Below, one piece after another: positions 4,776-43,086 of a stretch of DNA of 64,000 nt. The translations under genes and the position numbers were made by a program. Position 1 is the first letter of the stretch; every line of letters starts with the position of its first letter. The DNA comes from an uncultured Phycisphaerales bacterium (GTDB lineage Bacteria; Planctomycetota; Phycisphaerae; Tepidisphaerales; Tepidisphaeraceae): assembly GCA_963755915.1 (NCBI GenBank), contig CAVWLP010000002.1:3840001-3904000 (forward strand), given 5' to 3'. A model generated the notes under the pieces. It did not search any database. It was not told the origin of the DNA and worked only from the letters and a program-made list of their open reading frames with translations.

Positions 4776-7700
4776 TCACTTCGCCCGCTTTCGGTTCATG
4801 CGCAGCAGGTTGGCCAGGACCAGCCCGTCAACCCGCGCCCGCTCGCCGGCGAGAGGATGATTGTCGGCCAGTTTTTGTCCTGCCCCGGTGTCGATCCAGA
4901 CACCGGCCCAGTCCTCATTCCATTTCCCCTCGGGGTCGACGGCCGCATAGGCGGCCAGCACCGAGCGGTCGAGCGTCTCGTGGGCGAGCTTCAGCCAGGT
5001 CGGCCGCTCATTGTAGAGGTTCGTCAGCGTGCGCTTTTTCAGCCGCTCGTCTTTCGCCGCCGCGGCCATGATCGCCGATTGACGGATTAGCGGGCGGGCC
5101 TCGGATGGGACGTCGAGGAAGTTGTCGGCTTCGTCGATTCTCGCGGCAATCGGATCGATCCACTCCGGTGGATTCAGTCACCGCTCCCGCCGCTCGTTCA
5201 ATTCTTTTGCCGCTGCCGCAATACGTTTGTATGCGGGGTGCTTCACGTCTTCCTTGCCGGGGGGCCAGGGGAGGGGGAAGGTTTCAAAGCAGGTTGTGGG
5301 GGTGTAGCGGAATCCCGATTCGGCTTCGCGGAGCTGGGTTCCCGTGCGACGGGCCCACAACTCGTGAATGGATCCATCCAGCGCACCAAAAAAGTAATCA
5401 TCTTGTCGTGCGAATACGACCAATTGGTGGTCGGGCAGAACGTCGTGTTTTAGCCATACGAATAGTCGGTATTTCGTGAGAATCGGGGTTGCAAGATACC
5501 GACTTAGGGGACTCAGCGCCGAACGCATCGCCGGGCGAGGCCTCTCGTGGATCCACCATGCTTTTCTTTTATGGGCATACTGCGGTGCAATTTCCTTTTG
5601 GACGTAGGCAAAGGCGGCATCATAAGAGGCGGCCATTTCAAGATTGGTGTTAGGCGGGAAATCTATGATCCAGTTTAATTTTGACCGCTGGGTGACGTCC
5701 TGACCGTTGGCCCACGGCCTGCACACGTCACTCGTGCAGCGTCCGGAGGAGTTTGGTATTGAAAGAATATTGCGCGCCGTTTGCCAGGTGATCTCGAACG
5801 CCGCGCCTTTTTTGTCGGCCTCATGTTGGATGTCCTCCATCTCGTGAAGCTTGATCGCTTCTCCAATCGCAACTCCAGAACTAAGGTTTGCGTGTATTGT
5901 GGGGACGGATCTGCCATCCAAGACTTTGTCGGTTTGCACGCCTGAATCGAAACCCACGATCGAAACGTGTACTGCTGCACCTTCAAGGGTCCAATCATGA
6001 TCAGACCAAGCCAAAAAGATGTCGCCGATTTCTTTTATCCGTTTTAGCACTTCGCGATTCGCGCCTCCGCGAATGCCCTGAGTTGCGAGCAAGCCGACCC
6101 GAAGCGCTGGTGCGTCGGCCAATTTTCGCCGCGCAATCTCAAACCAGTAGCAGCAAAGATCGCTGAAGCGCGGTAGGTCGTGGGCGGTAAACAATGACGC
6201 CAGGTATGCGTCACCCAATTCGCGCCGGATGAAATTGCCCCCAAGAAACGGTGGATTGCCCACGATGAAATCAGCTTCGGGCCATGAGGCGGCCACGGGA
6301 AGCTTTGTTGGTGCGAGTTCTTTGATGGGCTTTTTGGGCTTCTTCGGCGTTCTCCCCCCACTCTTGCCCTCCCCCGGAGTACCAGGGGAGGGGGCGAAAT
6401 CGAGGATGGCGTCGCGGTTTTCGATGCATTGGAGTGTGTCGAGGATAGGGCGGCGGCGATCGTCGATGTTGTGCTCGTGCAGCCATTGGAGGTAGCCGAT
6501 CCAGATGACGACCTGTGCAAGTTCGGCGGCGTACGGATTGATCTCGATGCCGTGCATCTGTGTAGGGCGCACCTTCGGCACGGAGTCGATGTGGATGTCG
6601 TGGGTCGCGCAAAACCGGACGACTTCGTCTTCCAGGTCGAGAAGCCGCTGGAGTGTCACGTACAGGAAATTGCCTGAGCCGCAGGCGGGATCGAGCACGC
6701 GGATTTTGGCCAGCCGGCGGCGGAATTCCTCGATGGCGAGGATAATTGGGGCGGCCAGAATTCCGCGCTCTTTTCGTTCCGGCTCGGCATCGTGTTTCGC
6801 CAAGTCGGCGCCGATTTTCTTCTTGAGCGCGTCCCACTCGCGGAGCAGCGGCATCATGACAACGGGATCGACGACGAGCAGAATATCCTCTTTTCTGGTG
6901 TAGTGAGCGCCGATCTGGGCGCGCTTCTTGGGGTCGAGAATTCGCTCAAACAAGGTGCCGAAGATGGTGGGCTCTACACCCGCCCACGGCTTTTCGGCCA
7001 CGCGGCGCAGCGTGCGAAGTTCGGCATCGGTCAAAGCCAGTGGCGGCTTTTCATCAAAGAGACCGCCGTTGAACGCGTCGATTTTGTCGCTTCCATACCT
7101 TCCGCCCGCTTTCATCTGCTCGAAAAGCTGTGCCAGCGACGGCTGGAAGTTTTCAGGCTCAAAGAGGCAACTGTCGATCAGCTTCGTGAAGAGCTTGGGC
7201 GGAAGCAGCCCCACGTCTTCCGCAAAGAGACAAAACATGACCTTCATCAGGAAGTGCGCGACGGGATCGCCCGGCGCGGTCCAGAGCGACATGTCATCGT
7301 CGATGTGCCGCTGGATCAGCGCGTTCGCCACATCGGCAAAGACGTTGGCTATTTCCTTGGTGAGCTGCTCCCGGTTGCTCAGTGGGCGAAGGGATTCGGG
7401 ATTGCGGAATATCTGCTGAAAGAATTTGATCTTACCGGGAAACTCCTCGAGGAAGATTTCCCAAACCTGCGTCGGATACCCCGGAAAATGGGATCGGATG
7501 ACGAACTTCTCGATGTCACAGACGATCGACAGCGGCGGATTATCCAGCGCGTCGCGATATTGATAGACCTGCCGGTAGGCTTCCTCCAGATTCTGGCCCC
7601 TGCGTTTATACTCCCAGGCAAAGCACCCACGCTTCCACACATCCACATAACCACGCTCGCCCTTGGAGCCCTTGGAAGCGGGGGCGACTACTTTGACATT

Positions 7701-16776: not shown

Positions 16777-16820
16777 AATCGCCCGGAAATCCGGGCGATT
16801 TGCGGGAAACCATGGTTTCC
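16777..16820 (-). terminator. Hairpins downstream of tRNA-Glu (possible terminator)
   Basis: AAATCGCCCGGAAATCCGGGCGATTT and GGAAACCATGGTTTCC inverted repeats. Confidence 0.45.
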
Positions 16821-16824
16821 TGAA

Positions 16825-16897
16825 TACCCCCTAGGGGAGTCGAACCCCTGTCCTCTGGCTGAGAACCAGATATCCTGGGCCACTAGACGAAGGGGGC
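16825..16897 (-). tRNA. tRNA-Glu(CTC), CCA not encoded
   Basis: GCCCCCTTCGTCTAGTGGCCCAGGATATCTGGTTCTCAGCCAGAGGACAGGGGTTCGACTCCCCTAGGGGGTA folds as a cloverleaf with anticodon CTC. Confidence 0.95.
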
Positions 16898-17339
16898 TTC
16901 GAATGGGCTTGCCCAGCGGATGCAATCCTAATGCGGATGCGCGGAAGGTCAAGAAATCGGGTTTGGCCCCGTGGATGCGGGGCGGGGCAATCGCTTGCGC
17001 CTCGTAAAACGCAGAAGGCCGCCACCCATCGTGCCGAAACTAGCTGAAGAGGACAGGGGGCTCCCCGGGAGTACCTGACCGCCCGACACATTTTTTGAGT
17101 TCGAGGAGTAAGCGGCCGGCTCTTTTGAAGACAAATGCAAAAGCAATGCAGGGGAGGCGGGAGACAACCCATAAGGCCCCAAGGTTTTTCTCCCGCCTCC
17201 CCCGCACCCCCACTCCCTCTCCTTTTCCCCTGCTATGTTGGTTGTCAAGTGTGGGCCGCATTCGCCGCCTTTATTCTTTTGTCTTTTTAAGCTGTTGCTC
17301 GGCCTGTCAGTGTCCGCTCTGCATGGGCTGTTGCCATCA

Positions 17340-17485
17340 TTGCGGCAACGCTCTTCCTGCTATCCGTACCTGGCGGTTTGCCAGTACACCATGGTCTAAT
17401 ACGTCCGTTGCAGGCGGTTCACGCTGACCCAATCTAACCGCCGAACGCTCAAGGGCGCTCATAGGGGAAAACGGGCGCGTTACAC
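17340..17485 (-). ncRNA. Putative bridge/seek RNA of the IS110 element
   Basis: Internal loop with TTTTCCCCT and CGGTTAG matching both sides of the target; second loop with ATAGCAG matching the donor junction; boundaries approximate. Confidence 0.7.
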
Positions 17486-17574
17486 CGTGGCTCGTCTCTT
17501 TCACTTTTATTCCAAGCTCTTTATCCGTCGTCCATCCAGGCTCCAGAAGTTCGGGGACAACCTTGGCCGGCTTT

Positions 17575-18714
17575 TTACGCTGCCAGTTTCAAGCCCAGAT
17601 CCTGCGCTTTGACCCGGCCGGTTTTGATCCGCCACAGGTCCACCGCCAGTTGCCGCGCCAAGGCCACCGCGGCTTTCTTGCGCATGGCTCTGGCTCCGGG
17701 GTTCTCGAAGACCTGCTTCCAGCGCTTCAGACGAAAATACTCCGGCTGGAACTTGGGCAGCAGCCACGCCAGTTCCACCAGCACCGTGCGCAGTCGGCGG
17801 TTGCCATGTTTGTCGATCGACAGATTCATCCGGCTCTGGCCTGAGGAGGATTCTCCAGGGCAAAGCCCGGTGTAGCTGGCGATCTGCCGGCGGTTCTGGA
17901 AGCGATTCCAGTCGACGATCTCACGATCCAGCAGCTCATAGCTGAGGTGTCCGATTCCCTTGATCCGGGCCGATTCGCGGGACTTGGCCTCCGCGCAGAG
18001 CTGGCGGGTCAGTTCATCTCGCTTCTGGTCCATCATCTCTACCATCTCCAGGTCGCGGGCAAGCTCCTTGCGGATCGGTTCGATCAGTTCTGAGCCGTAG
18101 AGTTCTTCCAGCTTTTTCAGCAGCGGCTCACACGCCAGCGGCTCCCACCATTTTCCCGGGCGATGGATGCCGAGGCTGTGCAGCAGGCTTCGTCCACGGG
18201 CGATCCAGCGCTGCCGTTCCTTTCGGTAGGTGTTGCGCTCGCGCCCCAGGCGGCGGTGGATCTCCTGGGCCACCGTGGGGACACGCACCAGACGCAGCGC
18301 CGTCGTGTTGCCGGCGAGATGCCGGTCCAGACGCGAGAGCAGTTCGGTGGCGTCGATCTTGTCGTTGACTCTCTTGCGGCCGCGGGACAGACGTTCGGGG
18401 GCACAGACCAGGCACTCTACGCCCAGGGCGGTGGCTTCGCGGTGCAACGCGAAGCCGTAGGGACCGGCTTCGTAGACCATCACCACGCGTTTGGCCAGCG
18501 TCAGCTGCTTTTTGAGAAACTCGATGAAGACGGCCGGCGAGAGTTTTTGGGCCGGTTGAATCCCCTGATGATCGACCATCCGTGCGAAGGTATATTGCTG
18601 GCTGTGGGTATCCACGCCGAGTTTGATCACCTCGTGCGACTGATTGGGCTTCGAGACTCTCTCCCCTCGAACTTGGGAGGCCTTGCGGCTACCTTTAGAA
18701 GAATTGTGTTTCAT
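17575..18714 (-). CDS. IS110 family DEDD recombinase/transposase
   Basis: LGVDTH, VYEAGPYG, KRVNDKIDA (DEDD); IKGIG, RFQNRRQIASYTGLCPGESSSG, GNRRLR and VALARQL motifs. Confidence 0.95.
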   Translation of the reverse strand: MKHNSSKGSRKASQVRGERVSKPNQSHEVIKLGVDTHSQQYTFARMVDHQGIQPAQKLSPAVFIEFLKKQLTLAKRVVMVYEAGPYGFALHREATALGVECLVCAPERLSRGRKRVNDKIDATELLSRLDRHLAGNTTALRLVRVPTVAQEIHRRLGRERNTYRKERQRWIARGRSLLHSLGIHRPGKWWEPLACEPLLKKLEELYGSELIEPIRKELARDLEMVEMMDQKRDELTRQLCAEAKSRESARIKGIGHLSYELLDREIVDWNRFQNRRQIASYTGLCPGESSSGQSRMNLSIDKHGNRRLRTVLVELAWLLPKFQPEYFRLKRWKQVFENPGARAMRKKAAVALARQLAVDLWRIKTGRVKAQDLGLKLAA

Positions 18715-19124
18715 GGTTGTCGGGTTTAGTCGACGGTGGCTAGCCCGACAACCAACATGCCATCTAACCGTCCCCCCCAAAAGGCGAAATACGGAGGCGT
18801 TTCGCCAGTGATTCGCGCACCTCGTACACGTGGGCGTTGGAACATCCGATTGCGTGAATGCGGTCGTGCACGCATTTGATGGGGGAGCGTTGAGGGGAAA
18901 AGGAAGAGGAGTGGGGAGGGGGAAACTTTTGTCCTCGACCCTCAGCTCAGACCGGAGGGGGGCCCTATATCGGTTCCCCCTCGCCCCGCCCGCATTGCAT
19001 TTGCATTTGGAAGACTTTGCCAATTCGTCTCCCAACTCAAAAAAGTGTCGGGCGGTCAGGAGTACCAGGGGAGGGGGAAAAGGGGGACATCCGAATGCCC
19101 TGGGACGCGGATTGTTTCTAAATT

Positions 19125-19361
19125 TTAGAATCTTCCCCAAAGGAAGAAGGCCGCAATCCCGGCCAAAGTAAAATCGACCACGGCACCAAGTACGAATCTT
19201 AAATCCCCGGCATGGATTCCCGCTAAACTCAATGCGATCCCGCTGGTAACCCAGATAATCGCAACCATCCCGATTAGAAATCTGATCGCGGGTGGAAGTT
19301 GTCGCTTTCGTTTGGGCGAAGCCCCACCATAGTCGAGCTGGTGTGGCTTGGGATTATCCAT
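19125..19361 (-). CDS. Small membrane protein
   Basis: MDNPKPHQLDYG followed by 2 TM helices. Confidence 0.5.
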   Translation of the reverse strand: MDNPKPHQLDYGGASPKRKRQLPPAIRFLIGMVAIIWVTSGIALSLAGIHAGDLRFVLGAVVDFTLAGIAAFFLWGRF

Positions 19362-19460
19362 CCCGACGATTCTATCCTCCGAGCGGGAAAAAGCCGCCTG
19401 GGACCCGCAATAGTGGTGATTCAAATTGAGACACTGCCGGATGTTGTGCTGAGACAGTTT

Positions 19461-20792: not shown

Positions 20793-21200
20793 CTGTCCGC
20801 CCGGCATTGTGTTTGTTTCGGACGCACATCGGCCGTCGCATTAAATGCAAATTCGAAATGCAATGCAGGGGAGGCGGGAGACAACCCATAAGGCCCCAAG
20901 GTTTTTCTCCCGCCTCCCCCGCACCCCCTCCACCCACTTTCCGCTTCTCCTAACCGTCCAAGGGCAAAGACCGATGGGCTCGCGCCTTTGTGCGGATCGC
21001 AAATTCTTCTGCCTCCGGATGGTTGAGGGGAAAAGGAGAGGGAGTGGGGTGGGTGCGGGAGGGGCGAGGGAGAAACTATAGAGGCGCCCTTGCGACTCAT
21101 CTCATGTGGTTCTCCCTCGCCCCTCCTGCATTGCATTTGTCTTTCGTCCTTAAGCGAGCCGCCCTGGGGCCAACGCATTTAAAAAGTGTGGGGCCGCCAG
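20793..21200. mobile_element. Foldback MITE-like element copy 2
   Basis: Shares about 65 nt exactly with copy 1 (GCAATGCAGGGGAGGCGGGAGACAACCCATAAGG...CCCGCACCCCC); degenerate terminal IRs CTGTCCGCCCGGCA / TGTGGGGCCGCCAG. Confidence 0.75.
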
Positions 21201-22091: not shown

Positions 22092-22175
22092 CTGTGTGAC
22101 AGCATAGCCTAAAGCAATTGAATCGGTGTACCTGTTCTTAGTCGGTTCCCCTGTTTTTTCGATCACCCCTGGAAT

Positions 22176-22647
22176 TTGACCAGCGCGACACTTTTCTAAT
22201 GCGTTGGGCAAAGAGGTGCTCGCTGAAAGGCGAAATTCAAATGCAATGCAGGAGGGGCGAGGGGACACCATATAAGGCCCCAAAAGATAAGGCCCCAAAA
22301 GTTTTCCCCTCGCCCCTCCCGCACCCACCCCACTCCCCTTCCTTTTCCCCTCAACGCTCCCCCAGAAATGCAATGCATCGCAACCACTGCGTAATTGTGT
22401 GGCCGAAGGACCACGTGGACGCACAGCGCCGATTCTTGCAGAAATATGTCGGCATTCCGGATTTGGGATTGGACGGTTAGGGGAAGTCGGAAAGTGGAGG
22501 AGGGGTGCGGGGAGGAGGCGAAAACCGCTTGGGGCGCCCATGCAACTCATCTCGCGGGGTGTTCGCCTCCTCCCCGCATTGAGTTCGCATTTGCCTCTAA
22601 AAAGGTTGCCGCTTTGGGGTCAAAAACAGAGAGTTTCGCGCGTCCAA
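22176..22647. mobile_element. Foldback MITE-like element copy 3 (inverted orientation)
   Basis: Same arms (TGCAATGCAGGAGGGGCGAGGGG...CCCCTCGCCCCTCCCGCACCCACCCCACTCCC...TTTTCCCCTCAACG); intact IS target GGACGGTTAGGGGAA at 22471-22485. Confidence 0.75.
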
Positions 22648-22876
22648 GTGCTCCCGGGGGATGGGGTGTGGGGGCCGATCCGCGAACGAACCATGTGCGC
22701 GTAATGAATTTTTCCCCTGCAAATTACTGGAAAATCTTCTTAGGGCGGGTTACATAGATATTGGATTCAGACCGGAGCGGCCAAGGATGGCGCGATTCAT
22801 TTCCACCTTTTCCGATACATCTGCCGATAAACGGGGTGGTCCGTCTAATCATATTTGGCCAATGACGAAGGGAATC

Positions 22877-43046: not shown

Positions 43047-43086
43047 CCCCCGCCCCCGGTACTCCGGGGGAGGGTTGGGGAGGGGG
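43047..43086. repeat. REP-like palindrome (SPGTPGEG family)
   Basis: CCCCCGCCCCCGGTACTCCGGGGGAGGGTTGGGGAGGGGG. Confidence 0.7.

Follow-up and report, generated by a model that had tools for sequence, protein, structure and literature searches.

IS4321 and IS5075, two elements of the IS1111 family, target Tn21-family transposons at their terminal inverted repeats. IS1397 and ISKpn1 enter the loop of REP palindromic units with a short duplication, and the elements of the IS4 family typically contain ends beginning with CT and duplications of about 9–12 bp. The IS110/IS1111-family elements ISPa11, ISPpu9/ISPpu10, and IS621 were described, in the portions of two reports that deal with them, as inserting at one position in REPs (PMC12288879, PMC1525189). 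The latter also mentions the insertion of IS1397 and ISKpn1 (IS3 family) in REPs, and its Table 2 places 10 of 10 copies of ISRm22, an IS4-family element of Sinorhizobium meliloti, inside REPs (PMC1525189). For the IS1111 group, the pertinent part of a further report gives subterminal inverted repeats of 11–13 bp, asymmetric extensions of 7 bp on the left and 3 bp on the right, and transposases of 330–350 aa (PMC11187229). Elements of the IS4 and IS110 families that target REPs are already known, as are IS1111 elements targeting other transposons, and the locus described here reveals no new mechanism.

In our study, positions 17061–19077 of the window (the whole stretch of DNA that was analysed, 64,000 nucleotides) were found to contain an IS1111-type insertion sequence (IS) inside a MITE, which itself lay in the loop of a REP. 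All the features claimed for this region by an earlier sequence-only reading were present at the positions it gave. The nest very probably consists of three unrelated mobile or repeated elements that were stacked by two successive, site-selective insertions.

The IS resembled ISPa11, ISPpu9/ISPpu10, and IS621 in the family of its transposase, in its strict specificity for site and orientation, and in the predicted RNA-guided choice of a short repeat, as far as those elements are covered in the portions concerned (PMC12288879, PMC1525189); the AG core dinucleotide was shared with ISPpu9, as given in one of them (PMC12288879). Unlike in those elements, the predicted guide of the window IS was set to a site of the MITE, and the REP was reached only indirectly, via the MITE. 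The IS shared with IS4321 and IS5075 the IS1111 type, a specific target inside another transposable element, and subterminal repeats extended by 7 nt and 3 nt (as outlined for the family in part of PMC11187229), whereas its target was an internal arm of a non-coding MITE in place of the inverted-repeat tip of a large transposon, and the host was an environmental bacterium and not an enterobacterial plasmid. The predicted seekRNA was like those of ISEc11 and ISKpn4, as presented in the relevant part of Siddiquee et al. (2024, PMC11187229), in its origin from the non-coding region downstream of the transposase gene, its module of about 82 nt, its overlapping matches, and the 5′ position of the top-strand complement. 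It differed from them in being predicted from sequence, and the transposase had 379 aa against the 330–350 aa given in that part (PMC11187229). As in IS1397 and ISKpn1, insertion of the MITE was in the REP hairpin loop with a short duplication, but the transposase family was another one and a MITE took the place of an autonomous IS. The REP-specific insertion of ISRm22 fits the IS4-like partner that we infer for the MITE; unlike ISRm22, the REP resident was a non-autonomous MITE, and its putative partner came from metagenome contigs only and scored below the curated IS4 cut-off.

Structure of the REP and the MITE

The REP and MITE features of the window, to which no strand was assigned, were as follows.

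6368–6395: intact REP, of the type of the site split at 17061–19077
17061–17074: left REP half (CTCCCCGG; 11 of 12 matches to the REP half consensus) and first GAGTAC (17069–17074)
17075–17231: left arm of the MITE, with a 27-nt TIR (17075–17101) and an internal hairpin (17147–17206), ending at the IS target with CCCCT
18766–19059: central part and right arm of the MITE, starting with AACCGTCC (the IS target's right half) and containing a 26-nt TIR (19034–19059)
19060–19077: second GAGTAC (19060–19065) and right REP half (CAGGGGAGGGGG; 12 of 12 matches to the REP half consensus)
20793–21200: second MITE copy, uninterrupted, with degenerate TIRs and no recognisable REP halves (6 and 7 of 12)
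22176–22647: third MITE copy, uninterrupted, with an unoccupied IS target at about 22461–22473 and decayed REP halves (6 and 10 of 12)
43047–43086: intact REP, oppositely oriented and of a different subtype

Removal of the IS (17232–18765) left, as had been claimed, a foldback element with TIRs of 27 and 26 nt, one indel apart, composed of 17075–17231 and 18766–19059 and 451 bp long. GAGTAC was present on both sides of it and was followed outwards by the halves of a split REP. The intact palindromes at 6368–6395 and 43047–43086 were also found as read, and the third, degenerate copy was flanked by the half-REPs CACCCCTGGAAT (22164–22175) and GTGCTCCCGGGGGA (22648–22661).

Besides the TIRs, inverted repeats 42 nt (79%) and 24 nt (88%) long linked the two arms of the MITE, which was therefore classed as a foldback element; an uninterrupted copy folded far better than its shuffles (z = −4.8). 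It was small, possessed TIRs and a flanking duplication, and was present in many copies, as a MITE is, and its 451 bp were too short for a transposase of its own. Matches (HSPs) to the left arm, grouped from the match table, were found at 28 loci of the genome. Uninterrupted copies were also present in a sister genome (G001). Across 60 further genera of this family, the TIR pattern gave at most one match each at two mismatches, near the level of the reversed-pattern control.

The REP family contained at least 176 copies in the genome, counted with a 22-mer at up to three mismatches; 28 of these matches were exact, and one, two, and three mismatches were present in 13, 47, and 88 of them, respectively. 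The centres of 73 of the 176 lay inside stop-to-stop frames of at least 300 codons, against about 70% of bases; this depletion comes from a crude test in a genome of 59% G+C without gene calls. With regard to a RAYT link, the genome contained two PF01797 matches, and no REP was found by a looser pattern around them, in C3:1123000–1127800 and C3:575000–578200.

Insertion of the MITE in REP loops

In the genome, 14 of the 29 MITE termini adjoined a REP half, defined by at least 10 of 12 matches to the half consensus, versus 20 of 20,000 random positions (0.1%); in the sister genome the count was 3 of 9. The remaining 15 termini, mostly with degenerate TIRs, fell below the threshold of 10 of 12, so that the targeting of REPs by the MITE is incomplete, or else its traces have been lost through decay. 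Random flanks with no duplication in other MITE copies had been named beforehand as a result that would count against the earlier reading. About half of the termini were without a recognisable REP half; each of the five best-preserved copies lay in a REP loop with a direct duplication (GAGTAC, GTACTC, CCCGGAGTAC/G, CCTGGTACTC, and CCCGGAGTAC, respectively). The length of the duplication was uneven, being 6 bp in two and 10 bp in three of these copies. The ambiguity between a 6-bp and a 4-bp duplication, which the earlier reading had noted, was real for the window copy alone, and 10-bp duplications containing GAGTAC were found in other copies. When the five sites were restored, they had 23, 12, 2, 1, and 0 intact look-alikes in the genome at up to four substitutions in 36 nt.

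Two elements, one in the sister genome (L035) and one from a metagenome (L085), had flanking loops in the same and not the opposite outward orientation, an arrangement other than a simple target duplication. Elements with the MITE TIR tip were found in unrelated soil metagenome contigs, where 24 of 41 distinct flanks contained C-rich REP-like arms versus 4.5% of control windows, the motif having been chosen post hoc.

The sister genome yielded no clean orthologous empty site: the spacer between tRNA-Glu and the next gene contained a REP-like palindrome without MITE or IS that could not be aligned with the window, and for the MITE at C2:678768–679248 a counterpart was found for the left flank only. 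The public runs gave no contig that spanned the locus with its REP or its MITE empty; those matching 17014–17058 and continuing into an intact REP were considered as an empty site and rejected as paralogues.

IS1111-type element and its target site

The features of the IS are listed below; those given without a strand are inverted repeats.

17232–18765, minus strand: the 1534-bp IS1111-type element (IS110 family), with 6 identical copies, subterminal repeats, and 7/3 extensions
17235–17246: subterminal inverted repeat of the IS, partner of 18747–18758 (12 nt, 100% complementary)
17410–17491, minus strand: predicted seekRNA/bridge-RNA target-binding module in the 343-nt non-coding region, with a local fold of two stems around a 10 × 10-nt internal loop
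17434–17440, minus strand: predicted guide on the 3′ side of the loop, identical to the target top strand and pairing with the bottom strand (CGGUUAG), a 7-nt exact match across the core
17462–17471, minus strand: predicted guide on the 5′ side of the loop, complementary to the target top strand (UUUUCCCCUA), a 10-nt exact match across the core dinucleotide
17575–18714, minus strand: transposase gene, 379 aa and stop (NF033542, PF02371)
18747–18758: subterminal inverted repeat at the left end in the IS's own orientation, pairing with 17235–17246

The extensions outside the 12-nt subterminal repeats were the 7-nt AGATGGC on the left and the 3-nt AGC on the right, in the orientation of the IS. 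The non-coding DNA comprised 343 nt downstream of the transposase gene (17232–17574) versus 51 nt upstream. An IS110-family transposase, 12-nt subterminal repeats, 7/3 extensions, a long downstream non-coding region, and a single target and orientation are traits of the IS1111 group, and all of them were present. The transposase matched the NCBIfam model NF033542 ("IS110 family RNA-guided transposase") with 163.8 bits (cut-off 140) over residues 33–363 and model positions 3–337 of 343, and Pfam PF02371 with an E value of 8e-16; the N-terminal IS110 domain of Pfam (PF01548) gave no match even at E values up to 10. A search of solved structures by sequence gave no relative, the single row (TniQ, E 0.95) being noise. 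Counted from the first ATG, the protein of 379 aa was outside the 330–350 aa typical of IS1111, a figure that is typical and not a definition; the approximately 30 aa before the start of the model at residue 33 are either an N-terminal extension or a sign that translation really begins at another position. Of a promoter at the circle junction, only a TTGACA hexamer in the IS's right end was found, lying 17 nt from CATGTT across the junction, and the promoter scan of the linear locus gave 0 sigma-70-like sites.

All 6 copies of the IS in the genome were found at the same CCCCT-AACCGTCC site, in one orientation and each inside a foldback MITE copy. No difference was found in any of the 15 pairwise comparisons of the 6 copies, and the MITE copies that hosted them differed from one another in sequence. 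A further 12 CCCCT-AACCGTCC sites (13 nt) were unoccupied, all in the same MITE arm context. A contig of an independent soil metagenome run contained an IS with 98.8% identity (18 differences over 17225–18773), bordered at each end by MITE-like sequence. The targeting hierarchy proposed at the outset was supported, as the insertion of IS into MITE (6/6 IS copies) and that of MITE into REP (14/29 termini) each recurred independently, to an extent well outside what chance would give.

Predicted guide RNA and its variation in relatives

In the non-coding region of the IS, segments on opposite sides of the 10 × 10 internal loop matched the two strands of the target across the core dinucleotide. 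Of 5000 shuffles, 1 attained the two guide matches jointly, and in a second shuffle test 0 of 3000 did so. The complement of the top strand lay 5′ of the bottom-strand match, an in silico order that agrees with the one published for IS1111 seekRNAs. The IS is predicted to use seekRNA-type guiding to the MITE site. The 343-nt region as a whole did not outfold its shuffles (z = −1.29), and no curated Rfam family matched it, the neighbouring tRNA alone being above its gathering score. Sub-threshold Rfam "microRNA" matches at 17122–17232 were set aside as a reflection of the G+C-rich MITE hairpin. Contigs from an RNA library covered 17374–17597, for which DNA carry-over is possible. The heptamers ATAGCAG and GATGGCA of the non-coding region matched the circle junction and are candidate donor-side guides, such 7-mers being too weak for a claim.

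Two relatives of the IS (L057 and L058), 64–65% identical to it, were found to keep the same 12-mer subterminal repeat and the identical extensions AGATGGC and AGC. Their guide scaffold was conserved and the loop letters differed, as did the flanks, which were quite unlike those of the window IS; the relatives are predicted to aim at an 18-nt hairpin arm and not at the MITE site. In L057, whose predicted hairpin-arm target is AGGGGTCGGG, the 5′-side loop complemented its own right flank over 10 nt including the core, a match reached by 6 of 3000 shuffles. In L058 the corresponding complementarity extended over 9 nt, and the strict core-spanning test failed, with one mismatch at a core base and 2786 of 3000 shuffles reaching it. 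The bottom-strand matches were of 5 nt only in both. The predicted guide complements the target in the window IS, and the two co-vary in L057 and partly in L058.

Putative autonomous partner of the MITE

The exact 19-nt tip of the TIR was found in 42 soil metagenome stretches, 6 of which contained two inverted copies. Elements of 1184–1225 bp (L077, L093, and their relatives) carried this tip at both ends and encoded a DDE protein, so autonomous elements with the TIR tip of the MITE exist. The DDE proteins scored 115.8 and 106.1 bits against the IS4 model NF033591, under the NCBIfam cut-off of 152, and with PF01609 (cut-off 23) the scores were 33.3 bits for L093 and 17.1 for L077. These IS4-like elements of about 1.2 kb are likely to be the autonomous partner of the MITE. 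A candidate for the autonomous transposase with MITE ends, for which a search had been proposed, was found in soil metagenome contigs, and tblastn gave no IS4-like partner transposase in this genome, which is 81% complete by marker genes. None of its other IS families had MITE-like ends. An IS3-family element of 1.27 kb with (C)TGACC tips was considered as a partner and rejected, its ends being otherwise different and its duplications 3 bp long. The 1216-bp IS4-like elements L093 and L095 lay in non-REP flanks with no visible duplication, and a 201-bp element in L099 was flanked by a perfect 10-bp duplication.

Proposed order of insertions and implications

The order of events would have been REP, then MITE, then IS. 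At first, a REP downstream of the tRNA-Glu gene would have formed an imperfect palindrome of a C-arm, a GGAGTACC loop, and a G-arm. The 451-bp non-coding foldback MITE would then have entered the loop, where a DDE transposase supplied in trans may have cut in a staggered fashion, duplicating GAGTAC here and 10 bp elsewhere. The enzyme that mobilised the MITE was most likely of the IS4-like family whose elements bear the same TIR tip. Lastly, the 1534-bp IS1111-type element would have entered one arm of the MITE between CCCCT and AACCGTCC, probably by way of a circular intermediate and with no true duplication. Its site would have been picked by an RNA that the IS makes and uses, derived from its own downstream non-coding region, one side of the internal loop pairing with the top strand (TAGGGGAAAA) and the other with the bottom strand of GACGGTTAG, and the two predicted matches would share the core AG. 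The benefit of landing in such "safe" sites is an evolutionary reading, in which each element may have gained a harmless place.

The locus may represent a three-link hyperparasitism, in which the IS1111 guide RNA was naturally retargeted to a site existing only in the MITE, and the MITE family depends on REP loops as its niche; we give this proposal an even chance. If it is true, the habitat of the IS in this genome is made up of the MITE site, in its 18 copies, and in the end of the REP population, the copy number of MITE or REP should limit that of the IS, and the guide loops of this IS clade should follow the repeat content of each host. It would also be a natural model for the way in which RNA-guided recombinases find safe harbours. 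As the nest shows, IS110/IS1111 elements can specialise on another mobile element which, in turn, has specialised on a palindrome of the genome. The IS and its relatives provide a natural worked case of the programming of IS110/IS1111 recombinases, with the scaffold kept and the loop letters varying with the target at 64–65% identity. The defined guide/target pair and the 12 unoccupied natural sites are usable for testing guide rules. The nest also gives a simple picture of transposition tolerance in an IS-rich genome (166 repeated intervals of at least 600 bp).

Alternative explanations

The REP halves might belong to the MITE as its outermost stretch, in the manner of an extended TIR carried along with it, with no REP being targeted. 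A palindrome split at its loop necessarily resembles a TIR extension, the inverted repeat here running over 35 nt (17061–17095 and 19039–19073), and the window copy and the copy at C3:1156652–1158474 had near-identical TIRs and REP halves. Beyond the REP core of about 17 nt, however, the flanks of these two copies differed, and at least 176 REPs were intact without any MITE. Since the split REPs, which are asymmetric, differed in subtype and lay in both orientations relative to the MITE, their halves are not its cargo; the sequence-only reading had named such joint travel as the outcome that would count against it. The subtypes varied among copies and matched from left to right within a copy: at C2:678768–679248, for instance, the right half was of the CGGGGGCGGGG type and the left one was the upstream arm corresponding to it. 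The register of the MITE-REP junction varied as well (6 versus 10 bp). We regard this explanation as very unlikely. Survivorship, by which the MITE inserts anywhere and copies in harmless places persist, would agree with the half of the termini that lacked a REP half, with the non-REP flanks of the autonomous-looking L093 and L095, and with the degeneration of old copies. Nevertheless, REPs make up about 0.1% of the genome, far below all intergenic DNA, yet 14 of 29 termini adjoined one; all five clean copies were at the loop with GAGTAC within the duplication, a single-nucleotide register that selection for harmlessness does not predict, and the REP bias recurred in unrelated metagenome contigs. 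Survivorship as the cause of the association is thus improbable, if somewhat less so than carriage of the REP halves.

The 1985-bp unit (17075–19059) could also be read as one composite transposon, with the "MITE" TIRs as its ends and the IS110-family gene as cargo. Four of the 6 IS copies lay between recognisable TIR pairs about 1.8–2.0 kb apart, and the window and C3 copies shared 99% identity over a stretch that began at the REP half and ended 40 bp past the IS. Such a transposon is hardly credible, as the IS copies were identical whereas the MITE sequences around them were 70–98% alike and of different lengths, 12 uninterrupted MITE-type sites ran from CCCCT straight into AACCGTCC, and uninterrupted copies existed in the sister genome. 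The IS also had complete IS1111 ends of its own, and its relatives lay in quite different flanks. An assembly artefact produced by joined repeats would be conceivable in a genome so rich in repeated intervals (166, as given above) and rated 8% contaminated. This is extremely unlikely too and stacking by successive insertions is preferred: the six loci had the same junctions with different outer flanks, and the same IS-MITE junctions were present in independently assembled contigs of other runs (X2 records 11–13 and X5 record 18).

Structure of the nested insertion

In the window (G000:C2:3840001-3904000, on contig C2 of the genome under study, G000), the sequence-only reading had claimed a three-level nest, in which a REP is split by a MITE and the MITE by an IS. 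Reading of the sequence at 16800-19400 confirmed this anatomy letter for letter. The order across the nest was CTCCCCGG GAGTAC / CTGACCGCCCGACACATTTTTTGAGTT...MITE with the IS inside...AACTCAAAAAAGTGTCGGGCGGTCAG / GAGTAC CAGGGGAGGGGG. A repeat finder detected the perfect 12-nt subterminal repeat of the IS (17235-17246 / 18747-18758), repeats of 42 nt and of 24 nt between the two arms of the MITE, and a 35-nt repeat extending from the REP halves into the terminal inverted repeats (TIRs).

Features of the nest and its surroundings (window positions)
16825-16897, minus strand: tRNA-Glu(CTC) gene, directly upstream of the nest
17575-18714, minus strand: transposase ORF of the IS, 379 aa, matching NF033542 and PF02371
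20793-21200: another MITE copy
22176-22647: another MITE copy

The nested insertion is real and is neatly explained. IS4321 and IS5075 are IS1111-type elements that insert in other transposons. The targeting of REPs has been documented for the IS3, IS110, IS4, IS256 and IS5 families, with ISRm22 (IS4) and ISPa11, ISPpu9 and ISPpu10 (IS110) as examples, and the words MITE, nested and safe were absent from the available part of the same text (PMC1525189). Full-text searches of the literature found no description of an IS110-family element that targets a MITE, nor of such a nest. The nest combines already known kinds of behaviour; new here are one guide/target pair and a candidate partner for the MITE.

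Insertion of the MITE into REPs

The MITE was 451 bp long without the IS, and its HSPs, by our own grouping of the HSP table, fell into 28 loci at 68-98% identity. We scored 29 MITE termini in G000, degenerate ones included, and counted a REP half where at least 10 of 12 positions matched and the match ended 0-6 nt from the TIR. A REP half was found at 14 of the 29 termini, against 20 of 20,000 random positions, and the other 15 termini had none at this threshold; in the sister genome (G001), 3 of 9 termini bore one. All five MITE copies with the best TIRs carried direct duplications, and their restored insertion sites resembled intact REPs elsewhere. Two of these duplications were of 6 bp (GAGTAC in the window, GTACTC at C3:1156652-1158474) and three were of 10 bp, each containing the same hexamer.

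The REP halves might instead have travelled with the element, which the sequence-only reading had named as the finding that would count against insertion. Such cargo was excluded, because the flanking halves belonged to different REP subtypes and the MITE occurred in either orientation with respect to the REP it split. The flanks of one G001 MITE copy and of one metagenome element look exchanged, for instance via recombination between copies.

Identity and targeting of the IS

Along its entire length, the transposase matched the NCBIfam model NF033542 for IS110 family RNA-guided transposases with 163.8 bits (cut-off 140), and it also matched PF02371; no PF01548 match was reported in the domain search, and no solved structure matched it by sequence. 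In its own orientation, the IS had the ends AGATGGC-(12-nt repeat)...(12-nt repeat)-AGC, with 51 nt ahead of the ATG and 343 nt past the stop. According to the available part of PMC11187229, subterminal repeats of 11-13 bp, 7- and 3-bp extensions and a downstream non-coding region distinguish IS1111-type elements from IS110 proper.

Read in the sense of the transposase, the non-coding region contained UUUUCCCCUA (17471-17462), the complement of the target's top strand (TAGGGGAAAA), and CGGUUAG (17440-17434), which is identical to the top strand and therefore pairs with the bottom strand of GACGGTTAG. The core AG lay in both guide segments, which overlapped in the target; both matches were reached by 1 of 5000 shuffles of the non-coding region and, in a second test, by 0 of 3000. 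The predicted local RNA fold had two stems around a 10x10-nt internal loop, each side of which contained one of the guides, in a module of about 82 nt; the entire non-coding region was not unusually stable (z = -1.29). ISEc11, ISPa11 and ISKpn4 likewise have the complement of the top strand first and overlapping matches (PMC11187229), an arrangement that for the present IS is a prediction. An AG core in REPs is used by ISPpu9 (PMC12288879, available part).

Six IS copies of 1534 bp were present in the genome, with 0 differences across 15 pairwise comparisons. All were in the same orientation between ...CCCCT and AACCGTCC..., and the surrounding MITE sequences differed. Twelve additional copies of the 13-nt target were empty, all in the same MITE arm context. 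Among the matches listed in the genomes of 40 relatives, none was to the IS body; no conclusion rests on a single 56-nt match in one genome flagged as unpublished. In public runs of other studies, both IS-MITE junctions were reproduced (run X2), and one record (X5, record 18) carried the IS over 17225-18773 with 18 differences and MITE-like letters past both ends. Metatranscriptome contigs (X14) covered parts of the IS, including 17374-17597, which does not by itself prove transcription.

Some IS-bearing MITE copies shared identical or 99% identical stretches directly outside the IS and diverged further out, a pattern suggestive of gene conversion or of recombination that started from the identical IS copies:
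window 17199-17231 and G000:C2:1387620-1387652
window 17061-18805 and C3:1156741-1158488

Relatives of the IS

Scanning of one-genome-per-species contigs gave two IS relatives with 64-65% protein identity in two MAG records of the class Phycisphaerae (L057 and L058). Both had the 12-nt repeats and the same 7- and 3-nt extensions as the window IS, and their scaffold aligned with its scaffold, with different loop letters. In L057, the 5' loop side was complementary to 10 nt of the element's own right flank, across the core, and the match of the 3' side was limited to CAAAG; both matches were reached by 6 of 3000 shuffles. In L058, the 5' side was complementary to 9 nt of flank, and the strict core-spanning test failed (2786 of 3000 shuffles) because one core base was mismatched. 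A common scaffold with different loop letters indicates that the address changes within this IS clade and the scaffold is retained. The same 18-nt sequence adjoined both relatives (L057:3543-3560; L058:3057-3179), and in L058 a perfect inverted copy of it lay at a distance of 87 nt. In G000 this sequence formed two 36-bp perfect, terminator-like palindromes (C2:128177-128212 and C3:573716-573751), and the IS was absent from both.

Modules and candidate partner of the MITE

An uninterrupted MITE copy, folded as single-stranded DNA, gave z = -4.8. The TIR tip was present in G000 and G001 (13 matches, at most 3 mismatches) and was near control level elsewhere in the genus and family, but the inner hairpin module (AATGCAATGCAGGGGAGGCGGGAG...CTCCCGCCTCCCC; 17113-17231) matched G001-G012 and G020, covering many members of the genus as well as one other genus. 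The MITE therefore looks modular, as if put together from repeat modules of greater age. The IS with the highest copy number in the genome (about 32 copies of about 2.9 kb) was also found in a MITE: one copy lay at G000:C2:2519486-2522424, inside the inner hairpin loop of the MITE at C2:2519142-2522517, with an apparent ATGGG duplication; thus MITEs collect other IS too.

Candidates for an autonomous element with the same ends, for which the sequence-only reading had suggested looking, were found in metagenome contigs but not in G000. IS elements abound in this genome (166 repeated intervals of at least 600 bp at 95% identity or more; families of about 32, 25, 18, 13, 9, 9 and 8 copies), and no element with MITE ends was present in this inventory. 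The exact 19-nt TIR tip occurred in 42 metagenome stretches, six of them with two inverted copies. Tip-bounded elements of 1184-1225 bp were L063, L077, L085, L093 and L095. L093 and L077 encoded ORFs of 373 aa and 431 aa (48% mutual identity); both proteins matched the IS4 model NF033591 under its cut-off, and PF01609 was matched over the cut-off by L093 and under it by L077. A tblastn search with them found nothing in the G000 assembly (81% complete). A 201-bp element (L099) had a perfect 10-bp duplication. A C-rich REP-arm motif lay within 30 nt in 24 of 41 distinct flanks of tip contigs against 4.5% of control windows, a description rather than a test, since the motif was picked after the flanks had been seen; the flanks of L093 and L095 (both 1216 bp) were non-REP.

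The REP family and its second resident

The 22-mer REP core had 176 matches at up to 3 mismatches, 28 of them exact, and at least 3 subtypes whose arms differed together. By a crude test, REP centres were under-represented in long open frames, which contained 73 of the 176 centres and about 70% of all bases. The right-arm subtypes CAGGGGAGGG, CGGGGGCGGG and CGGGCGAGGG varied in step with a C-rich segment that lies about 15 nt upstream of the core; the REP unit thus exceeds the 22-nt palindrome in length and may include a second pairing. Two Y1-transposase genes were found, neither with an adjoining REP: a Y1 (HUH) transposase-like gene of 247 aa (G000:C3:1125058-1125801, L055:1432-2175; PF01797, 57 bits), within about 2 kb of which no REP of this family lay, and a weaker match at C3:576500-576694.

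A 1.4-kb IS481-family element (NF033577, 260 bits, cut-off 224) was found outside the window at G000:C2:740520-741913 (L059), with about four other copies. It was located within the REP left arm (CCCC / IS / CCGGAGTACC), and a 29-bp remnant joining both of its ends was found inside REPs, including the REP in the tRNA-Glu spacer of G001. This element is a second, independent REP-resident element.
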